From an uncultured Gemmatimonadales bacterium (GTDB lineage: Bacteria; Gemmatimonadota; Gemmatimonadetes; Longimicrobiales; Longimicrobiaceae): a stretch of 64,000 nt of DNA. Shown one piece after another: positions 5,764 to 59,778 of the stretch. Under the pieces are notes generated by a model. That model made no database searches. It worked only from the letters and a program-made list of their open reading frames with translations, and was not told where the DNA came from. Both the position numbers and the translations under genes were made by a program. Within the stretch, counting starts at the first letter, position 1. The number at the start of each line of letters is the position of its first letter. The DNA lies in contig OY970303.1 of NCBI GenBank assembly GCA_963716255.1, positions 896,001-960,000 of the forward strand. The letters run 5' to 3'.

Positions 5764-6150
5764 ATGGAGCACCACCACGATCACGACGACCACGAGCACG
5801 GCGACGGCGAGAGCTTCGGCATGGCCCTCGGCTTCCGCATCTTCGAGGACGACGGCCAGCTCTTCCTCGCGGAGGTGGAGATCACCCCGTACGTGGACGA
5901 GCCCACCGCGCTGGGGGCGACCCTGGTCTTCCACCCGCTGAGCGGCATCGACCCCACCTCGCCCGACCAGGAGGGCGACGCCGAGGCGTGGCCCGTGGAC
6001 GTGGACGACGACCTGGACCGCGACACCGGCGCTCCCATCCCGGAGCAGTTCATGGCGATCGCCCGCCAGGCGGGCCGCTTCACCGAGGAGCAGCTGCGCG
6101 ACTACCTCGCCCTCGCCCGCGAGGAGCAGGAGGACGTCGGGGCGGAGTAG
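5764..6150 (+). CDS. Hypothetical acidic protein with His-rich N-terminus
   Basis: GGAGGA RBS, good codon usage, MEHHHDHDDHEH start. Confidence 0.75.
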   Translation: MEHHHDHDDHEHGDGESFGMALGFRIFEDDGQLFLAEVEITPYVDEPTALGATLVFHPLSGIDPTSPDQEGDAEAWPVDVDDDLDRDTGAPIPEQFMAIARQAGRFTEEQLRDYLALAREEQEDVGAE

Positions 6151-6179
6151 GCTCTCCGCCGCTCGACACTCGACGCGCC

Positions 6180-6224
6180 GCGGGGGCGGCGGATCACACG
6201 ATCCGCCGCCCCCGCCGCTTTTCC
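6180..6224 (+). terminator. Rho-independent terminator
   Basis: CGGGGGCGGCGGATC-ACAC-GATCCGCCGCCCCCG hairpin, then CTTTT. Confidence 0.55.
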
Positions 6225-6234
6225 GCGAGCCGAC

Positions 6235-6370
6235 GGCCCCACCCGGCGGCCTTAGAGCCGCCACCCTCCCCCAATTCTGGCGGAGGGCTTCCTGATCCCC
6301 GCCTCCCGCGTGTCGTGCTCCCCCTTTCCCCCGCTTGCGGGGGAGAGGGGGTCGGGGGGTGAGGGGGCCC
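6235..6370. repeat. REP-like palindromes D (GGCCCCACCCGGCGGCCTTAGAGCCGCCACCCTCCCCCAATTCTGG) and C (CCCCCGCTTGCGGGGGAGAGGGGG..GGGGGGTGAGGG)
   Basis: Near-identical copies at 40173-40313; related copies at 14081, 25509, 34295, 47541, 49611. Confidence 0.85.
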
Positions 6371-6397
6371 GCACTCGCGGACGCCAGCGCGAACCCC

Positions 6398-6532
6398 GCG
6401 TGAGGGATTCCGGCCCGAAGGGGCGAGACCCGCGGGCAGTTTCGCGGGGCTCGACTCCGTTAGCCCGCGTTGTTTGCGGGCTTACGGAGCCGAAGCCCGA
6501 CCCCGGCGCCCGCCGGGGGCACGCCCGAACCC
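6398..6532 (+). repeat. Family A element, copy A2
   Basis: Full colinear copy; stems CCCGCG/CGCGGG and AGCCCGC/GCGGGCT. Confidence 0.95.
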
Positions 6533-6537
6533 ACGAT

Positions 6538-8472
6538 TCAAACCCGCTCCAGCTCCTCCCGCAGCACCCGCCGCAGCGCTTCCGCGAACCCGCCGATGAA
6601 ATCCACCCTGCCCCGCCGCGACGCGAGAAACGGGTCCATCACCGTGCAGCGGATCACGCTCACCCCGCCCGCCTCCAGGTAGTCCTCGTGGCGGAAGCCC
6701 AGCCCTTCCACCACCGGGTCCGCCGCGCGCCCGTACTCCGCCGCGCGCAGCACCGTCTTGGTGACGAAGTAGTCCAGCGCCCGCGCCGGGTGGGTCTCGG
6801 ACACGCTCATGGCCCGGTAGACGCGGTCCGCGAAGGCGTTGGTGGCCTCCAGCCCCGCGAGCGCCGGGTGCCCCACGGCGAAGCAGACGATGTTGATGTC
6901 CGGCGTGGGGAGCAGCACCAGCCGGAAGGGCGCCCACTCGCCCATGGCCAGCCGGCGGTGCAGCATCAGCGCCCCGCGCGCCGTTTCCCCCACCAGGCGG
7001 CCGTAGCCGCGCGAGTCCAGCGGCAGCACCTTGTGCGACATCCACACCCCCGCCGCCGCCGCGCCCGGCTTGGAGCCCTCGAAGATGAAGCGGCCGATGT
7101 ACCCCCACTCCGACGCGCCCCGGTGGAACAGGTACGGCGCCTCCACCGCCACCAGGTCGCGCACCCGCCGGTCGCGGAAGGAGACCGCCCCCGCCGGGTA
7201 GGGGATGAACCCCAGCTTGTGCGGGTCGATGGTGACGGAGTCCGTGCGCTCCAGCGCGGTGAGCGCGCGGTATACCCCCTCCTCCGGCCACGCCTCCGGC
7301 GCGTAGTCCGCCAGCGTGTCCTCGTACGAGCGCCGCGCGCCGTCCGCGCCCCGGGTGATGGAGGCCGCGTAGCCGCCCCACGCCGCGTCCGCGTGGAGGT
7401 GGAACGCCACCCCCAGCTCCCGCCCCGCGCGCTCCCGGACGTCGGCGAGCAGGTCCAGCCGGTCCACCGCGCTCTCCTCCGTGGTGCCGATCACCGACAC
7501 CGCCGCGATGATGGGGGTGCTCCGCTCCGCCAGCGTGCGCACCCGCTCCTCGAACGCTTCCGGGTCCATGCGGAAGCGGCGGTCCACCGGCACGTGCACC
7601 AGCTGCGCCGCCCCGATCCCCAGCGCCCGGCAGATCTTTTCCCACGAGTAGTGCGCCGTGGAGGGCACCAGCACCACCCCCGACGCCAGCGCGTCCCCGA
7701 ACCCCGAGTGCAGCCGCCGCCCGAACTCCTGGTAGCCCAGCCCCGCCAGCGAGTGGCGGCGCATCACCTCCAGCGTCTGGTACACGTCGCCCGCCCACCC
7801 CTGGAGCGCCGCCGCCGCGTCCAGCGCGTCGTCCGGGGCCAGGTTGAGGAGCCGCCACAGGTCCAGCTCCAGCAGGTTGGCCGATTCACCGCCGGGGAGC
7901 CGCACCGGGATGTCGTCGGCACCCATCTCCTCCGCGGCCCAGCGGGTCTCCACCGGCAAGTACTTGACGTTGCGGGCCACCCAGAGTGCCTCGAAGTTGG
8001 CGACCGTCCCCCCCGAGGTCAGGTGCCCCCACTGCCGCTCGGTGTCGTAGCCGATCATGCGCGCCAGCTGGTCCGCCACCTCCAGCTCCATGCGCGTGGT
8101 CACCGGCGACGCCTCCGCGGCCACGTTGTTGGGGTTGTAGAGCATGGTGGCGAAGTACCCGATCAGGCTGGCCATGGTCAGGTCCGACGACATGTGCCCG
8201 ATGTAGCGCGGGCTGAAGAACGGCACCCCCGCCTTGAGCTCGCCCAGCAGGCCCATCAGCTCCTGCGACAGCGTGGAGATGGAGTGCTCGTAGTCGGGCG
8301 AGTGCTTTTCCGTCTCGCGGACGATGAAGCCGTCCTCCGGGTGGAAGTTGCGGCGCCAGAAGACGTGGTCGCGGAACGCCTCCAGCAGCAGGCGCTCGAA
8401 GGTCTCGGCGTTCTCGCCCTTGGGGCCCAGGAAGATGGAGCCCAGGTCCAGGCCGTTCTGTCGATCCGTCAT
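6538..8472 (-). CDS. Group II PLP-dependent decarboxylase (tyrosine decarboxylase-like)
   Basis: FLGPKGEN, PRYIGHM, YNPNN, GGTVANFEALW, HYSW.K, HADAAWGGY, DPHK (PLP lysine), EGSKPG; start at ATG 8472 because the upstream extension lies in repeat B1. Confidence 0.9.
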   Translation of the reverse strand: MTDRQNGLDLGSIFLGPKGENAETFERLLLEAFRDHVFWRRNFHPEDGFIVRETEKHSPDYEHSISTLSQELMGLLGELKAGVPFFSPRYIGHMSSDLTMASLIGYFATMLYNPNNVAAEASPVTTRMELEVADQLARMIGYDTERQWGHLTSGGTVANFEALWVARNVKYLPVETRWAAEEMGADDIPVRLPGGESANLLELDLWRLLNLAPDDALDAAAALQGWAGDVYQTLEVMRRHSLAGLGYQEFGRRLHSGFGDALASGVVLVPSTAHYSWEKICRALGIGAAQLVHVPVDRRFRMDPEAFEERVRTLAERSTPIIAAVSVIGTTEESAVDRLDLLADVRERAGRELGVAFHLHADAAWGGYAASITRGADGARRSYEDTLADYAPEAWPEEGVYRALTALERTDSVTIDPHKLGFIPYPAGAVSFRDRRVRDLVAVEAPYLFHRGASEWGYIGRFIFEGSKPGAAAAGVWMSHKVLPLDSRGYGRLVGETARGALMLHRRLAMGEWAPFRLVLLPTPDINIVCFAVGHPALAGLEATNAFADRVYRAMSVSETHPARALDYFVTKTVLRAAEYGRAADPVVEGLGFRHEDYLEAGGVSVIRCTVMDPFLASRRGRVDFIGGFAEALRRVLREELERV

Positions 8473-21563: not shown

Positions 21564-21587
21564 GTGTCCACTGTGTCCGCTAATATG
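21564..21587 (+). promoter_or_regulatory. Conserved upstream motif of TPR gene 1 (GTGTCCACT-GT-GTCCGCT-AATATG; TAATAT -10-like)
   Basis: Matches the motif upstream of the paralogous TPR gene at 59153-59178. Confidence 0.6.
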
Positions 21588-21631: not shown

Positions 21632-23023
21632 ATGGGGCAGACCACGATCGAAAGGGCCCCGCGCCCGCGGAGCCTCCCGCCGGTGCCGCGGTGGCTGCCG
21701 GAACACAAGCTGATCGAGGACGCGGACGCGATCGGCGACGACGTGGTGGCGCTCGCGCTGCTGCTCCTGCTGCGCGACATCCGTCTCTGGGTGGAGTCGC
21801 CTCCCGAAGAGAGATCAAGTCTCCTCCTGCCCCCGAGCCGGGATCGCGTCGAGACCATCGAGCGCGCTTCCGCACGTGCACAGAGCATCGCGGAGGCGCT
21901 GAACGATCTCTCCGCCATGCGCTCAAAACCTGAACGTGCGACTGACGAAGTCCTGAACGCAGCCTGCCAGCGCATTGCTAGGTGGGCTCATCGGCAGTCT
22001 CTGAGTTGCATCGCACTACTATACGCCGAAGCCGCCGCACGCATTGCTCTGGCGACGGCATCCAATGCGAACTTCGCGGGGCGAATGGCTCGGATTGCAG
22101 GCTTTCCGGACCGGTCCGAATTGTGGTTTGATCACGGTATCAGAATCGCTGGCCGTGACGGGAACAGGAACAGAGGCGAATTGATCCGTGCTTTACTTGG
22201 CAAAAGTACGATTCTGCGGGAGAAAGGATCCTTTCAAGATGCACGATGCCTCCTGGATCGAGCAGCTCGCCTTTGTGCCTCAACGCGCCGGTACAGGCAA
22301 GCTGCGGAAACGCAGCACGACCTCTTCGCACTAGCCGTCGTGGATGGAACCTTTGTAGAGGCCGAGGGACACATGGCGCTGGCTGTTGAGCACTACCCAA
22401 TCCACCATCCTGCGATTCCAATACTAATACATGACTGGTGCTTTCTACTTGTTCAGCATGGGTACTATTCCGAGGTATTACCTCTACTCTGCGAGTCGAT
22501 CCCACGCATCCAGCGACTTGAAGTCCAACTGTTTAGTCTGGGCCCCCTTGCGCGGGCTGCTGGTGGGGTCGGGCTCAGGAAACTATATGATGAGGCAGTG
22601 CAACGGATTGAAGTGCTCGTTGAGCGCACCAAAGCGTATGCTGCACCAGCACTTGCGCATGCAGCCTATGGAGCGCGATTCTTCGCAGATTGGGAGCGGG
22701 CATTCAACCTTGCGACACAGGCTAGGGCAATTGCGCTTGCCAGAGGCGAAATAGAAGTAGCGAACGGAGTTGAGGAGTTCCTCTCGGCCATCCGCGCGAA
22801 GGTGCCGCCTATACCGTCCGCGACGCCTCCAGACTCCAGTCGTGTTACGGAAATCCACGACCGCATAATGCGCCTTCTAAAGGCACGCGAGCGACCTGTT
22901 CGTCGTCCCGTCGAGCCGACCGAGGCGCGGGAGGCAGGCGGCATCCAAGTGCCTGCCTCCACAACAACCTCAGCGTCATTAACCGCCAGACCCCCCCAAC
23001 CACCCCGCGAACGCAGCCGTTGA
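21632..23023 (+). CDS. TPR-like all-helical protein, candidate peptide receptor 1
   Basis: Repeating Ala/Leu-rich helical pairs; aligns by eye along its length with 57777-59099. Confidence 0.8.
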   Translation: MGQTTIERAPRPRSLPPVPRWLPEHKLIEDADAIGDDVVALALLLLLRDIRLWVESPPEERSSLLLPPSRDRVETIERASARAQSIAEALNDLSAMRSKPERATDEVLNAACQRIARWAHRQSLSCIALLYAEAAARIALATASNANFAGRMARIAGFPDRSELWFDHGIRIAGRDGNRNRGELIRALLGKSTILREKGSFQDARCLLDRAARLCASTRRYRQAAETQHDLFALAVVDGTFVEAEGHMALAVEHYPIHHPAIPILIHDWCFLLVQHGYYSEVLPLLCESIPRIQRLEVQLFSLGPLARAAGGVGLRKLYDEAVQRIEVLVERTKAYAAPALAHAAYGARFFADWERAFNLATQARAIALARGEIEVANGVEEFLSAIRAKVPPIPSATPPDSSRVTEIHDRIMRLLKARERPVRRPVEPTEAREAGGIQVPASTTTSASLTARPPQPPRERSR

Positions 23024-23209
23024 GGCTGAATCGGGGATACTGGTCGAAGAGGGCGTCGCCCCTGTGTCATCGCCCGACCGTCCTCCGCTGCCACCCAAGA
23101 AGCCACTGTAGGCCGGACCCGCGGGAGCGCTCACGCCTGTGGGAGTCTCGCTGCCGCACCCCGCCAGTGAAGCAAGAAGGCAAAAACCGAGAATTGTCTT
23201 TCTATGCAT
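22979..23209 (-). CDS. Small lipobox-bearing secreted peptide A with duplicated GGSGG core
   Basis: MHRKTILGFCLLASLAGC; cores GFLGGSGG and C-terminal GWLGGSGG; paralog of 23295-23531. Confidence 0.8.
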   Translation of the reverse strand: MHRKTILGFCLLASLAGCGSETPTGVSAPAGPAYSGFLGGSGGRSGDDTGATPSSTSIPDSASTAAFAGWLGGSGG

Positions 23210-23294
23210 GTGGATCCCCTGTGTTTGAGGAAGGCGTCAGCCGCGAAGTGGCCGACACACAAGCCGCCGTCATCCTGTCGAGCGGCGCGGCAAG

Positions 23295-23531
23295 CTAGTT
23301 CCCTGACCCCATCGTCCAGCCGCCGAAGGCAACCGTCGTAGTCGAGCCAGACGTGCCGGTAGAAGTCGGAGTTGTCCCAGAGCCGCCGTCGCCCGACCGG
23401 TTGCCGCTTCCCACCATCAATCCAGTGTCGGATCTCGGACCTACAGGCGTATCCACGCCCGTGGGAGCCTCGCTGCCACACCCCGCCAGCGACGCAAGAA
23501 GACAAAGGCCGAAAATCAACGTTCTGCGCAT
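23295..23531 (-). CDS. Small lipobox-bearing secreted peptide B with duplicated GSGN core
   Basis: AGGAG RBS; MRRTLIFGLCLLASLAGC; cores GLMVGSGN and C-terminal GWTMGSGN. Confidence 0.8.
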   Translation of the reverse strand: MRRTLIFGLCLLASLAGCGSEAPTGVDTPVGPRSDTGLMVGSGNRSGDGGSGTTPTSTGTSGSTTTVAFGGWTMGSGN

Positions 23532-56583: not shown

Positions 56584-57060
56584 CTATCCGCGCGCGCGCC
56601 CGGCCTGCCGCGGCGGGTCCAGCGCCCTGAAGGCGTCCAGCGCGGTTTCCATGGACGTGCCGTGGCCCTCCCGCCCGGACAGGCGGGCGAACTCCTCCAC
56701 GAACGCGGCGTGGGTCTCCAGCGACGCGGGCTGCCGGGCACCGGCCTCGGTGCTGCGCAGGGTGCTCGTCAGCTCGTCCTCGCCCGGGAAGCCGAGCGAG
56801 CGGCTCCAGTCGGCGAACGCTTCGGCCAGCCGCTGCGACAGGCGGATGGACTCGAACATCGAGAACCCCCGCACGTGCCGCGCGTGCATCCACGCGCACC
56901 GGCGCCCCCGCTGCATGGCCCGCACGCCCGCGTGGCCGTGGTCCTCGGTCTCCGGCAGGGGAGTCATGCCCTTGGACGTCAGGCAGTAGTCCCGCACGGC
57001 TTCGAAGAACACCTCCCACGTGTCCTGGGGACTGCTCGGCTCGGGCGTCTCGGACACCAT
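56584..57060 (-). CDS. Hypothetical protein divergent from peptide C gene
   Basis: GAGG RBS, host-like codon usage; no recognisable motif. Confidence 0.6.
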   Translation of the reverse strand: MVSETPEPSSPQDTWEVFFEAVRDYCLTSKGMTPLPETEDHGHAGVRAMQRGRRCAWMHARHVRGFSMFESIRLSQRLAEAFADWSRSLGFPGEDELTSTLRSTEAGARQPASLETHAAFVEEFARLSGREGHGTSMETALDAFRALDPPRQAGRARG

Positions 57061-57474
57061 GGGGTACCTCTCGCGGCTCGCGTGTCGGCCCGTAGAAAGC
57101 TGGAGAGGCCCGCAGCAAATCAGGTGCCCGATCCGGCGGGGTGCGGAGCCGGGGGCCGGGTGTCGGAGCGCTGGGACATGGGACACGTGTGCCACAGGCG
57201 CGGTGGACAGTGCGGCGCAACGGACCGGCCGTCGCTGCGTGCGTCACGGTGCCGGACGGGGACAGGGTATACCCGCGCGGACTCGGCCGGTTGAGTGTCG
57301 CGGCTGGCTGAGCAACGGAGGCACTTCAGGAGAGTTGTCCCGCCGCGCCTTATTAGCTGAGTGCAGTAGCTAGGGCGGGGTGATGTGAACTGGGGCAAGG
57401 ATGCCCCAGAAAATAAACTCCGGCGGGGACAAGAAGGAGACGGGTGTCAGAATACGTATGGGAAGTTAGTTTAC

Positions 57475-57508
57475 AAAGTGGACAGGACGACACCGTCCGA
57501 TCCACTTT
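57475..57508 (+). promoter_or_regulatory. Inverted repeat in the leader of peptide C gene containing the GTCCACT motif
   Basis: AAAGTGGA-CA-GGACG-ACAC-CGTCC-GA-TCCACTTT. Confidence 0.45.
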
Positions 57509-57537
57509 CTTCCTTCACCCCCTTCAGGAGCAGTCAC

Positions 57538-57771
57538 ATGCGCGTTTCGTATACCTCTCTGGCGGTTGCAGCACTCCTTTTCCTCGCCGCTTGCGGCACC
57601 AGCTCACCGGAGATCGTCGCACCCAGTAACAGTTCGGCGAACTCTGTCGCGGGTGACGGTGGGGGACTCGGAATGAGCGGCTCAGGCAATGCAATCGCGA
57701 CCGATACCACCGCAGCTAATGTCTCCACGACAGAGCGGGGCGGACTCGGGATGAGCGGCTCGGGGAACTAG
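57538..57771 (+). CDS. Small lipobox-bearing secreted peptide C with two identical GGLGMSGSGN cores
   Basis: AGGAG RBS; MRVSYTSLAVAALLFLAAC; second core at the C-terminus. Confidence 0.85.
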   Translation: MRVSYTSLAVAALLFLAACGTSSPEIVAPSNSSANSVAGDGGGLGMSGSGNAIATDTTAANVSTTERGGLGMSGSGN

Positions 57772-57776
57772 TCAAC

Positions 57777-59099
57777 TCAGGGATATACGAGGGCGCGCGT
57801 GGGACTTTCAGGTCCATTGTCTCGCCGCGCCCTCATTGCATGCGCAAGCTGGACAGTGAGTTCATCAACCTCTACATCCGCGTGAGCCGCAGGAGTCGGG
57901 ATCATGCGCCGACGATCTTTGAACACCTTCGCAACCGAATCATCACAAATCACATTCTGGTTCAGTGCTTCGACGATCGCTGCTGCAGCAATAATTGCCT
58001 CTGACTCTTTCCGCTCCCGCGCCACACTTAGTGCTTCGGCCGCCGCAAAAGCTGAACGTTCCCACTGGCCTAAATTTCCGGCTCCCAATGCAAGCTGGAC
58101 CAAGGCCGCAGCATGCCCCTGTCGAGTAACCTGCTGCCGAATGAGAGACCATGCTTCAATCCACATTCCTTCAAATGATTCAACCCACCTCGCCCCAGCC
58201 GCAGCTCGGGCGAGATTGGCAAACAACAGAACTCTGTATGGAGGATCCCAGACGTGCTCAGTCAGAGCCGAGAACACCTGCGCGGCATTCTCGAAATTGC
58301 CGTAGTGGTCCATCCAGAACCACGCCACGTCCTTGGCGAGATGGTAGATCTGGATATGCCCTGTTCCATATGCATTTAGCGCCTTTCGAGCATAGTCTAC
58401 CCCCTGCTTTTCATCCCCGAACGAAAAACTCATCACCGCCAGATCGTAAAGCGCATCTCCCTCCAGTGTCCGCAGCCCGCGGAGCTTTGCCATACGACGG
58501 GTGACTTCGTGCAGCCGCCGCGCTTTCGGAAGATTGCCGCGTTGCCGGTGCAGGTTTCCAAGGCTGGAGAGCGCCAGCGTTGCCACATCCCATTTATCCG
58601 ACGAGCGGGCGACGTAGTGCGCCCACTTCAGCCACGCCTCGGACTCCTCGTAGAAAGCCATCCTCCGGGCGACGCGGCCCAGGTTGTACGCGTAGTGCGG
58701 GTTGTCCGGGTAGATGTCCTCCGCCGCGTGCAGCAGCCCCACCGCCGTCCGGTACGCTCCCCGCTCGTCCGCCCACATCGCCGCGTTGAAGCAGCAGAAC
58801 GCCACAGCTTCCAGGGTGTCGTCGTCGGGCTCCGGGTCGCGCAGCAGCCGGTCGAGCGCGGCCAGGCTCGGCCGCAGCGAAGGGTTCACGTCCGCGTAGA
58901 CCTGGAGCGGCGCGTCCCCGTCGTCCACCGGCGCCCCGTGCCAGTCGCGCACCCGGCGCAGCGCCTGCCACAGGCGCAGCCCCTCGCTCTCCAGCCCCAG
59001 CGATTCGAACTCCGACAGCACGTACATGAACGCGAGGGTGCCCGACTGCGGGATGTGGATCTTGGGCGGAACGGGGGGCTCGCACCGGGATACAGGCAT
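57777..59099 (-). CDS. TPR protein, candidate peptide receptor 2
   Basis: TPR-like YPDNPHYAYNLGRVAR and ALSSLGNLHRQRGNL..A; homologous to 21632-23023. Confidence 0.85.
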   Translation of the reverse strand: MPVSRCEPPVPPKIHIPQSGTLAFMYVLSEFESLGLESEGLRLWQALRRVRDWHGAPVDDGDAPLQVYADVNPSLRPSLAALDRLLRDPEPDDDTLEAVAFCCFNAAMWADERGAYRTAVGLLHAAEDIYPDNPHYAYNLGRVARRMAFYEESEAWLKWAHYVARSSDKWDVATLALSSLGNLHRQRGNLPKARRLHEVTRRMAKLRGLRTLEGDALYDLAVMSFSFGDEKQGVDYARKALNAYGTGHIQIYHLAKDVAWFWMDHYGNFENAAQVFSALTEHVWDPPYRVLLFANLARAAAGARWVESFEGMWIEAWSLIRQQVTRQGHAAALVQLALGAGNLGQWERSAFAAAEALSVARERKESEAIIAAAAIVEALNQNVICDDSVAKVFKDRRRMIPTPAAHADVEVDELTVQLAHAMRARRDNGPESPTRALVYP

Positions 59100-59152
59100 G
59101 GCGATGTGCTGTGCTGGGGACACGTTGTCGGTTAACAAACGCAAGCGAACGG

Positions 59153-59178
59153 CATATTACAGTGGACGGAGTGGACAC
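59153..59178 (-). promoter_or_regulatory. Conserved upstream motif of TPR gene 2 (GTGTCCACT-CC-GTCCACT-GT-AATATG on minus strand)
   Basis: Matches 21564-21587. Confidence 0.6.
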
Positions 59179-59301
59179 ACAAGGAGGGACCTGAAAAGGG
59201 GGGATCGGCGCGCGCCCGGCCGCCGCCGGGCCGTCCGGAGGGTGCAGCCGCACGGGTCCGGTCAAGGCTCCATCCGGCCCGCGCCGTCGCCAGGGGCAGA
59301 C

Positions 59302-59778
59302 TTACCGGCGAGACCCGGGAAGCGGGCGCCCCCGGCCGATTGCCCCAGCATCCGGCTCGCCGTGCAGCCGCGGGTCGTCCAGCATCCCCACCTGCGCCAG
59401 CACCTCGTCCGCGATGCCGATGTCGGCCAGCTCGGCGCGCGCCCAGCCCGCGTCGAGCATGGACTCCACCTGGCCGCGCACCCACGCCGTCTGCTCCGCG
59501 GCCTCGCGCTCCGCGTCCCCGCGCTCCGCGACCAGCTCCCGGGCGGTCTCCTCCATCTCGCGGAGCGTGCGGTGCGTTTCCTGCCACACCGCCATCTGGT
59601 CGCGGAACGACAGCTGGCCGTCACGCAGGACGGCGGAGGCGGCACGGAGCGCCCGGGAGCGGCTTCCCGCCTCGCCCGCCGCCAGCTTCAGCTCCTCGGA
59701 CCACTGCCGGTTCGCGGTCACGTCCACCACGTCCTCCGCCGGCTCCCGCTGGTATCCCGCTGGTGTCCTGTCGCGCAT
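59302..59778 (-). CDS. Hypothetical coiled-coil protein
   Basis: GAAGGGGG RBS, host-like codon usage. Confidence 0.6.
   Translation of the reverse strand: MRDRTPAGYQREPAEDVVDVTANRQWSEELKLAAGEAGSRSRALRAASAVLRDGQLSFRDQMAVWQETHRTLREMEETARELVAERGDAEREAAEQTAWVRGQVESMLDAGWARAELADIGIADEVLAQVGMLDDPRLHGEPDAGAIGRGRPLPGSRR

Follow-up and report, generated by a model that had tools for sequence, protein, structure and literature searches.

We describe a gene pair in Longimicrobiaceae in which a gene for a tetratricopeptide repeat (TPR) protein and a small gene for a lipobox-bearing propeptide are coupled tail to tail. The pair lies within positions 56,584 to 59,178 of a 64,000-nt stretch of DNA (the window; contig OY970303.1, positions 896,001 to 960,000, assembly GCA_963716255.1) from an uncultured Gemmatimonadales bacterium. 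By comparative sequence analysis we show that this coupling runs through a 35-copy family, that the short Gly-Ser-Gly cores of the propeptides are under purifying selection, and that the 3′ half of the receptor gene and the mature peptide form one tract whose history differs from that of its flanks. We propose, with a probability of roughly 60%, that the pair would function as a peptide-receptor circuit of the Rap-Phr kind in a diderm host, in which the peptide is exported, cut and reimported, and whose alleles are exchanged by recombination.

A conserved tail-to-tail cassette

The cassette comprises the following features, compared where indicated with its closest orthologues, L001 and L065.

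57777..59099, minus strand: TPR receptor candidate gene (ATG at 59099, stop at 57777; 440 residues; Pfam TPR_12, AlphaFold2 model, 35-copy genome family)
Residues ~1-160 of the 440-residue TPR protein: conserved helical N-terminal part
Residues ~220-440 of the 440-residue TPR protein: variable, putatively peptide-binding part
59100..59200, minus strand: upstream/promoter region of the TPR gene; it carries a GTGGACA word, which also stands before the TPR gene of a second cassette in the window (locus 1); 92-98% identical to L001/L065
57538..57771, plus strand: lipoprotein propeptide gene (ATG at 57538, stop at 57771; 77 residues; lipobox LAAC19 with Gly at +2; convergent homologues beside orthologues)
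57661..57690, plus strand: internal core GGLGMSGSGN
57739..57768, plus strand: C-terminal core GGLGMSGSGN, with Glu-Arg before it as putative cleavage site
57440..57537, plus strand: conserved upstream/promoter block of the peptide gene; it contains a CAGGAG ribosome-binding word and one GTGGACA; 93-94% identical to L001/L065
57600..58440 (approximate limits, ~0.85 kb), no strand: hypervariable, lower-GC specificity tract covering the mature propeptide and the 3′ half of the TPR gene

An earlier sequence-only reading of the window had described this layout, a 77-residue lipobox peptide with two identical cores whose stop codon lies 5 nt from that of the TPR gene, and we find it as described. 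The rest of the propeptide includes low-complexity spacers of Thr, Ser and Ala. A scan for a sigma-70 consensus promoter or a terminator found none.

The genome measures 8.42 Mb at 73% GC. An iterated hidden Markov model (HMM) drifted to 52 sequences, long multidomain TPR proteins included, and the family was cut at >300 bits. This yielded 35 copies, with one multidomain open reading frame (ORF) left out and one C-terminal fragment added, and a second search gave the same count. We scored as coupled any copy with a small lipobox ORF on the opposite strand ending -60 to +80 nt from the TPR stop. A convergent small lipoprotein gene was present beside 28 of the 35 copies, compared with 48 of 5463 control genes (0.9%), and in all 28 it lies downstream of the TPR gene on the opposite strand. 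This coupling rejects a chance neighbourhood and bears out the proposal of an expanded family. All scored propeptides carry a lipobox, which is partly due to the search design. In one further copy the peptide gene lies 1.2 kb off, beyond an inserted two-gene element. This element, which resembles an insertion sequence (IS), is present at G000:C1 4506222-4507339 and 554940-556057; it splits the one TPR-peptide pair and adjoins the truncated copy.

The pairing extends to other genomes and metagenomes, where 41 of 51 evaluable TPR ORFs, some near-duplicates included, have a convergent lipopeptide. As the earlier reading had supposed, the peptide ORF is conserved beside orthologues: it is retained next to all 10 non-duplicate ones used. 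Each of the 18 genomes of the bacterial family that were searched has matches: genomes of the window's genus contain 12-44 of them and those of other genera 1-19. This tally takes in the unpublished genomes G010 and G012, which support no further claim made here. A phylum-wide search at E<=1e-15, with about 11 candidates scored for each genome, gave matches in 5 of 151. A profile search returned 906 clusters at 50% identity (E<=1e-30); named homologues of the TPR protein belong to Longimicrobiaceae or Gemmatimonadota, and Atlas matches are Gemmatimonadota TPR clusters. Four distant TPR relatives from other families (L023, L024, L086 and L087) keep both a convergent lipopeptide and an AraC-type gene, and some of their cores end in TNNN or ANNN. 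A phage origin was rejected: viral contigs held no relative, with three patterns searched with this query, and BFVD structures gave generic TPR folds only. A defence system was rejected as well, PADLOC giving a generic TPR match only.

Propeptide cores

The DNA copies of the two GGLGMSGSGN cores differ at 5 positions, all of them third positions and all synonymous. Just 7.7 of the 30 sites are synonymous, so the probability that all differences would be so is ~0.001. The 30 nt preceding each core match at only 12 of 30 positions. Across 14 own-genome propeptides, pN/pS (nonsynonymous to synonymous differences) of the repeated cores is 0.41; in the 77-residue propeptide it is 0. The selection on the peptide suggested earlier from these synonymous differences fits this pattern.

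We collected 65 propeptides, 42-140 residues long. In 57 of the 63 scored, five variable residues, mostly Gly or hydrophobic, precede G[S/T]G in the core, and Asn usually comes next; the six without a G[S/T]G core were dropped, leaving 57 pairs. The last core sits at the extreme C-terminus in 50 of these 57 propeptides, and 31 have at least two cores. Of 103 cores, 50 have an Arg one or two residues ahead of the 9-mer, compared with a background of 3.2% per site, and Asp is the next most enriched, which points to a cleavage site.

Within the genome, the 21 last cores scored are all different. Identical cores recur across lineages, and GGLGMSGSGN itself reappears in the second propeptides of L003 and L065. 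Whole propeptide genes are duplicated at locus 1, L002, L003, L010 and L065. Long propeptides of 121-158 residues with up to seven cores occur as the second propeptides of L002 and L003 and at G000:C1 5657116-5658519; those of L002 and L003 combine several core classes, which are the main cores of other alleles. These long propeptides are candidate multi-dialect or promiscuous intermediates. Orphan lipobox propeptides with G[S/T]G-type cores and no family TPR gene beside them lie at G000:C1 4279156, 5167401, 7420196 and 6466597.

A hypervariable tract with its own history

GC content drops from ~72% to 55% across the 3′ part of the TPR gene and the peptide gene. Compared with L001/L065, DNA identity along the TPR gene is 92-96% in codons 1-160, 76-81% in codons 161-240 and 58-64% in codons 241-440; in the peptide gene it is 67-73% for the mature peptide, 84-87% for the signal peptide and 93-94% for the promoter. 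At fourfold-degenerate sites, 13 of 86 differ from L001 in codons 1-160 and 55 of 98 beyond (p 8e-9); the corresponding counts for L065 are 11 of 83 and 61 of 99. GC at third codon positions (GC3) is 0.47-0.72 in the tract versus 0.90-0.97 before it. GC3 in the tract is low in all nine orthologues examined, and synonymous sites there are near saturation. Several other paralogues without a neighbouring AraC-type gene show the same 3′ fall in GC3; five AraC-linked paralogues hold 0.91-0.97.

The two halves of the receptor candidate also group differently. L002 and L003 share 97% identity in residues 10-200 and 49% in residues 230-430, and the C-half of L003 is 63-69% identical to those of L007, L008 and L012. 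N-half and C-half trees of 12 rows reject each other (approximately unbiased test, p<1e-5 both ways; log-likelihood differences 104 and 187). In the C-half tree the 440-residue protein departs from its N-half sisters and groups with L067, L003, L008, L012 and L007 (bootstrap 90). All six members of this clade have an adjacent propeptide with a G-x-G-[LM]-[MS]-GSGN core, absent in the other five, with the peptide classes defined post hoc, after the tree was seen. In Mantel tests across 11 orthologues, residues 321-370, a region picked post hoc, gave r 0.40 (p 0.04). All 57 pairs, which are not independent, gave a partial r of 0.11-0.16 (p 0.02-0.05). At this locus, relatives appear to have exchanged matching receptor and peptide ends as a single block.

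Predicted fold of the TPR protein

The TPR_12 match of the 440-residue protein has E 7e-10, and its AlphaFold2 model is all-helical (pLDDT, the predicted local confidence, 92), a predicted superhelix of TPR motifs. In NCBIfam, HaaT was matched weakly in its TPR stretch (17.8 bits, cut-off 1125). No Pfam helix-turn-helix (HTH) was found in the protein at E<=1, nor in 79 N-terminal segments of family members at E<=0.05, and no Pfam family was matched by more than 2 of those 79. Neither the Pfam scan nor the model revealed an enzymatic or pore domain. Across 63 diverse copies, the polar residues D257 (100%), R298 (92%), R363 (87%), D219 (81%) and N182 (75%) are kept.

A wide structure search placed the eukaryotic proteins LGN (Z 22.4) and Pins (Z 22.2) at the top, above any Rap. 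The best bacterial matches were RapI (Z 19.2; root-mean-square deviation 6.2, 291 residues aligned), RapH (Z 18.4; 5.6, 311) and Rap pLS20 (Z 18.1), with model residues 36-366 aligned on RapH 4-370; MalT domain III (Z 17.1) and NprR (Z 15.8) ranked lower. The predicted fold is thus a peptide-binding-type superhelix of Rap size, which is not evidence of descent from Rap.

A predicted complex of TPR residues 10-428 with peptide residues 40-77 gave weak support (0.39, versus 0.01 for the best control). Its runs share at least 34% of contacts, and the partner has a pLDDT of ~35. The support mark is reached by 116 of 157 solved complexes and by 2 of 215 mismatches; scores over the mark and up to 0.60, as here, comprise just 18 of the 157 solved complexes together with both passing mismatches of 215.

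Neighbouring genes and a second cassette in the window

56584..57060, minus strand: 158-residue gene, divergently oriented to the peptide gene; it adjoins the cassette but probably does not belong to it
21632..23023, plus strand: TPR paralogue of locus 1, in a different clade, with an XRE-like HTH gene upstream
22979..23531, minus strand: two lipobox propeptide genes of locus 1 (76 and 78 residues), convergent with the locus-1 TPR gene

The sequence-only reading had taken the two TPR proteins of the window for diverged paralogues within 36 kb and had pointed out a small divergent gene at both cassettes. Homology of the proteins holds: BLASTP aligns them at 23% identity over residues 90-383 (E 2e-7), the motif pairs quoted are all present, and both match one paralogue-built HMM near full length (413 and 377 bits, both proteins being in the building set). 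They are not local duplicates. A tandem duplication of locus 1 was rejected, as the two loci sit in different AraC-less clades of a quick tree (midpoint root, careful search unfinished).

The 158-residue gene is present and divergent as described. It is single-copy in the genome, syntenic in L001-L003 and L066 only, and not homologous to the divergent gene of locus 1 (E 11), which rules it out as a shared third element. It had no Pfam, NCBIfam or PADLOC match and no usable Atlas match. In L001 an extra ORF (5967-6563) is inserted between the peptide gene and the 158-residue gene. Just upstream of the TPR gene (59302-59778, minus strand) lies a helical gene of 142-158 residues, syntenic in L001, L003 and L065, with no family above cut-off; it is a possible partner of the TPR protein. 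CheB-type genes and a PAS histidine kinase gene also neighbour this locus and are kept in several orthologues.

The neighbours that recur up to 2.2 kb from the 35 copies are AraC-type genes, XRE-like genes, histidine kinases and the IS-like pair; no modifying enzyme recurs over that distance (30 neighbours Pfam-scanned). The AraC-type family has 12 full-length genomic members, 9 of them within 0.8 kb of a TPR copy (9 of 35 copies). HTH_18 scored above cut-off in 7 of 7 scanned, and the N-terminal part has, by eye, the look of a degenerate receiver, with one sub-threshold GlnR match. An XRE-like gene (HTH_3 below cut-off) lies near five TPR copies, locus 1 included, and near six members, from other genomes, of the clade sister to this locus. 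On a quick tree of 52 rows, the AraC label requires 5 changes compared with 16.6 when shuffled, and the four distant rows, which come from other families, all have an AraC link; hence the three-gene form of TPR protein, lipopeptide and AraC-type regulator is probably older, as judged with a midpoint root only.

Three further observations concern possible outputs. The word GTGGACA, on either strand, occurs upstream of 11 of 32 TPR genes and 130 of 2673 control regions (raw p 2e-7, the best of all 7-mers); its window sites, at 21565, 57203, 57478 and 59171, fall at both loci and possibly mark a shared regulator site. At G000:C1 5766000-5780000 (L060), MbtH-, thioesterase-, phosphopantetheinyl transferase- and non-ribosomal peptide synthetase-like genes lie between an AraC-linked cassette and another AraC paralogue, which suggests that this cassette controls a natural-product cluster, the enclosed genes being labelled by eye. 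At G000:C1 97634-101552, a gene for a ~1200-residue protein with a weak TPR-profile match and, by eye, a diguanylate-cyclase-like start is immediately preceded, on the same strand, by a small lipobox ORF bearing a GSG-like motif, a possible second output type.

Relation to known systems

Like Rap-Phr (RRNPPA), the family combines a cytoplasmic protein of ~370-440 residues, made of a helical domain and TPRs without an HTH, with an adjacent small, putatively exported propeptide bearing a C-terminal core; many paralogues per genome and orphan receptors complete the likeness. Its intragenic core repeats and whole-gene duplications resemble those of phr. The available part of PMC5199041 gives the B. 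subtilis group 11 ± 2 rap paralogues, orphan receptors, intragenic core duplication and phr gene duplication, and reports that evidence for recombination was not found in Rap homologues. By contrast, the receptor halves in the family described here have apparently recombined. Also unlike Rap-Phr are the Gly-rich cores of 9-10 residues, which share a fixed G[S/T]G tail, and the up to ~35-44 matches per genome, and the probable target is an AraC-type or XRE-type factor rather than Spo0F or ComA. The rap and phr genes are co-oriented, with the propeptide gene immediately downstream on the same strand, whereas the cassette described here is arranged tail to tail on opposite strands.

NprR-NprX, PlcR-PapR and AimR-AimP likewise pair a TPR receptor with an exported propeptide, often with repeated cores. 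Unlike the candidate receptor described here, in which none was detected, the receptors NprR, PlcR, Rgg, PrgX and AimR have an HTH of their own. The pherotype loci agr and comQXP consist of one contiguous hypervariable block that holds the peptide and the sensing half of the receptor between conserved flanks. Those systems use membrane histidine kinases and modified peptides, whereas the receptor candidate of the present cassette is a TPR protein that is soluble, and it is the convergence of the two genes that makes the block contiguous. The best structural match, the TPR domain of LGN/Pins (GPSM2), is a eukaryotic scaffold, and the LGN groove binds extended peptides. MalT domain III is the sensor domain of a STAND protein and, like LGN, has no linked propeptide gene.

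RRNPPA systems, as surveyed in the available part of PMC9765709, were found in Firmicutes, and export by signal peptidase II (lipobox) was predicted there for 211 of 2,734 propeptides. The diderm Gemmatimonadota host and lipobox precursors throughout differ from that picture. According to the accessible text of PMC10075063, signals are typically oligopeptides in Bacillota and small molecules in Pseudomonadota and Actinomycetota; that paper and PMC9765709, in the parts available, describe intracellular peptide-receptor communication as a Bacillota trait. A search of PMC12700828 by terms found no mention of Gram-negative hosts. We found no description of TPR-peptide signalling in Longimicrobium or Gemmatimonads, or of Gram-negative RRNPP systems, in a literature search whose coverage left out most subscription papers. 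The cassette is Rap-Phr-like in its proposed working but is not assigned to RRNPP: the TPR and propeptide features are present, and those of host, strand and HTH are not.

Proposed mechanism and alternative explanations

In the proposed circuit, Sec would export the propeptide, which would receive its lipid on Cys19 and stay at a membrane, and a protease cut after Arg or Asp would release the ~10-residue core. The core would re-enter cells through an oligopeptide transporter and bind the TPR groove; the genome has three OppA-type PF00496 matches. Conserved receptor residues would read the invariant G[S/T]G-x tail, whereas the variable C-half would recognise the five variable positions of the core. 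Binding would switch the conserved N-terminal helices, which would act on a partner protein because the receptor candidate has no HTH. In the apparently older cassettes the adjacent pseudo-receiver/AraC regulator is the most likely candidate for this role; at this locus, which has no such neighbour, the action would be in trans. Because the genes converge, their specificity-bearing C-termini lie side by side and one tract can replace both. A single ~0.85-kb recombination tract would thus swap lock and key together, leaving promoters, signal peptide and output domain untouched and producing pherotype-like alleles at a fixed locus.

Several observations weigh against this circuit. To reach other cells in a diderm, a precursor anchored by lipid would have to pass through or around the outer membrane, and no route was identified; TIGR04566, for myxobacterial outer-membrane exchange, had no match in the genome, a result that is uninformative since controls were silent too. 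Seven of the 35 copies have no adjacent peptide, 26 have no AraC gene, and no regulator adjoins the cassette at this locus. Several propeptides combine cores of different classes, blurring strict specificity. The Rap likeness may be that of a generic TPR superhelix, since eukaryotic LGN/Pins match best (Z 22). No Rap or other RRNPP protein is among the 60 listed of 85 PDB sequence matches, and the N-terminal part (residues 8-150), folded alone, returned background only (Z <=8.5) and no Rap N-terminus. The distinct specificities expected by the sequence-only reading gain indirect support from the 21 different last cores and from a C-half that tracks peptide type. Covariation speaks less clearly for them: across the 11 orthologues the Mantel correlation is weak (residues 161-370, r 0.22, p 0.08; N-half r -0.06), and in 21 own-genome pairs C-half similarity adds nothing beyond N-half similarity (partial r 0.04, p 0.33). 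The other C-half groups are also weak, with bootstraps of 46 for two GTWI-type alleles and 53 for three GQ-type alleles.

An unlikely alternative, though the one that fares best, is a same-cell sentinel or timer. Here the peptide would stay with its producer, and the TPR protein would read the core after a periplasmic loop of export, cutting and reimport, or a precursor backed up in the cytoplasm, and so report the state of the envelope, protease or secretion. The predicted lipid anchor of every scored propeptide (subject to the search design) would tie the precursor to its producer, the analysis identified no way out through the outer membrane, and CheB-type and PAS histidine-kinase genes are neighbours at this locus. 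Such a device would have little reason for 21 of 21 different cores or for allele exchange between lineages, which social or kin-specific selection fits better.

We consider it distinctly improbable that the pair is a self/non-self or addiction module, in which the TPR protein would be harmful or growth-arresting unless its cognate core is bound, as a toxin-antidote pair or a kin barcode perhaps passed on as a lipoprotein. High copy number, low-GC hypervariable tracts and allele swapping are typical of immunity and kin loci too. Some TPR copies lie near what we take, from labels assigned by eye, to be a resolvase-like, ParA-like or IS-like gene. The missing enzymatic or pore domain, the seven peptide-less copies, the link to AraC and XRE regulators and the purely generic PADLOC match argue the other way.

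That the pair is real and its variable tract reflects fast local evolution or relaxed selection, with no exchange of specificity alleles, seems very unlikely. Near-saturated synonymous sites and low GC3 in the nine orthologues are what AT-ward drift would give, and most C-half branches are poorly supported. Saturation, however, should produce a star rather than trees that reject each other, and the L003 C-half is closer to those of L007, L008 and L012 than to that of L002, its 97% N-half twin. Least probable of all is a ribosomally synthesised and post-translationally modified peptide precursor, in which modified cores would be set free as a natural product and the TPR protein would be a chaperone that binds the precursor: leader, spacer and repeated cores have that anatomy and HaaT is weakly matched, but no modifying enzyme family recurs near the 35 copies and the lipobox routes the precursor out of the cytoplasm.

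Implications

On present comparisons, the Rap-Phr-like circuit is best seen as a variant form of peptide-receptor signalling that bears, at this locus, an unusual signature of block exchange; the locus itself is real, conserved and part of a large family. More tentatively, each Longimicrobiaceae cell might run ~30 peptide channels of RRNPP-independent origin. The tail-to-tail layout could then be a specificity-swapping device, lipid-anchored precursors could serve as barcodes of kin or neighbours through vesicles or contact, and multi-core precursors could speak several dialects.

Beyond the three-gene form with its AraC-type regulator, this locus adds a large expansion within one genus, AraC-less clades and a mosaic tract. 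The system would offer a natural test of how receptor-ligand specificity changes without a broken intermediate, by block exchange here versus peptide duplication in Rap-Phr. Its cores are short, candidates for unmodified peptides and synthesisable, and about 60 receptor-core pairs are listed. If the proposed circuit is true, a 35-copy analogue, with a family count about threefold above the rap count of Bacillus, in a widespread and barely cultured Gram-negative soil lineage would extend peptide-receptor communication across the membrane divide.

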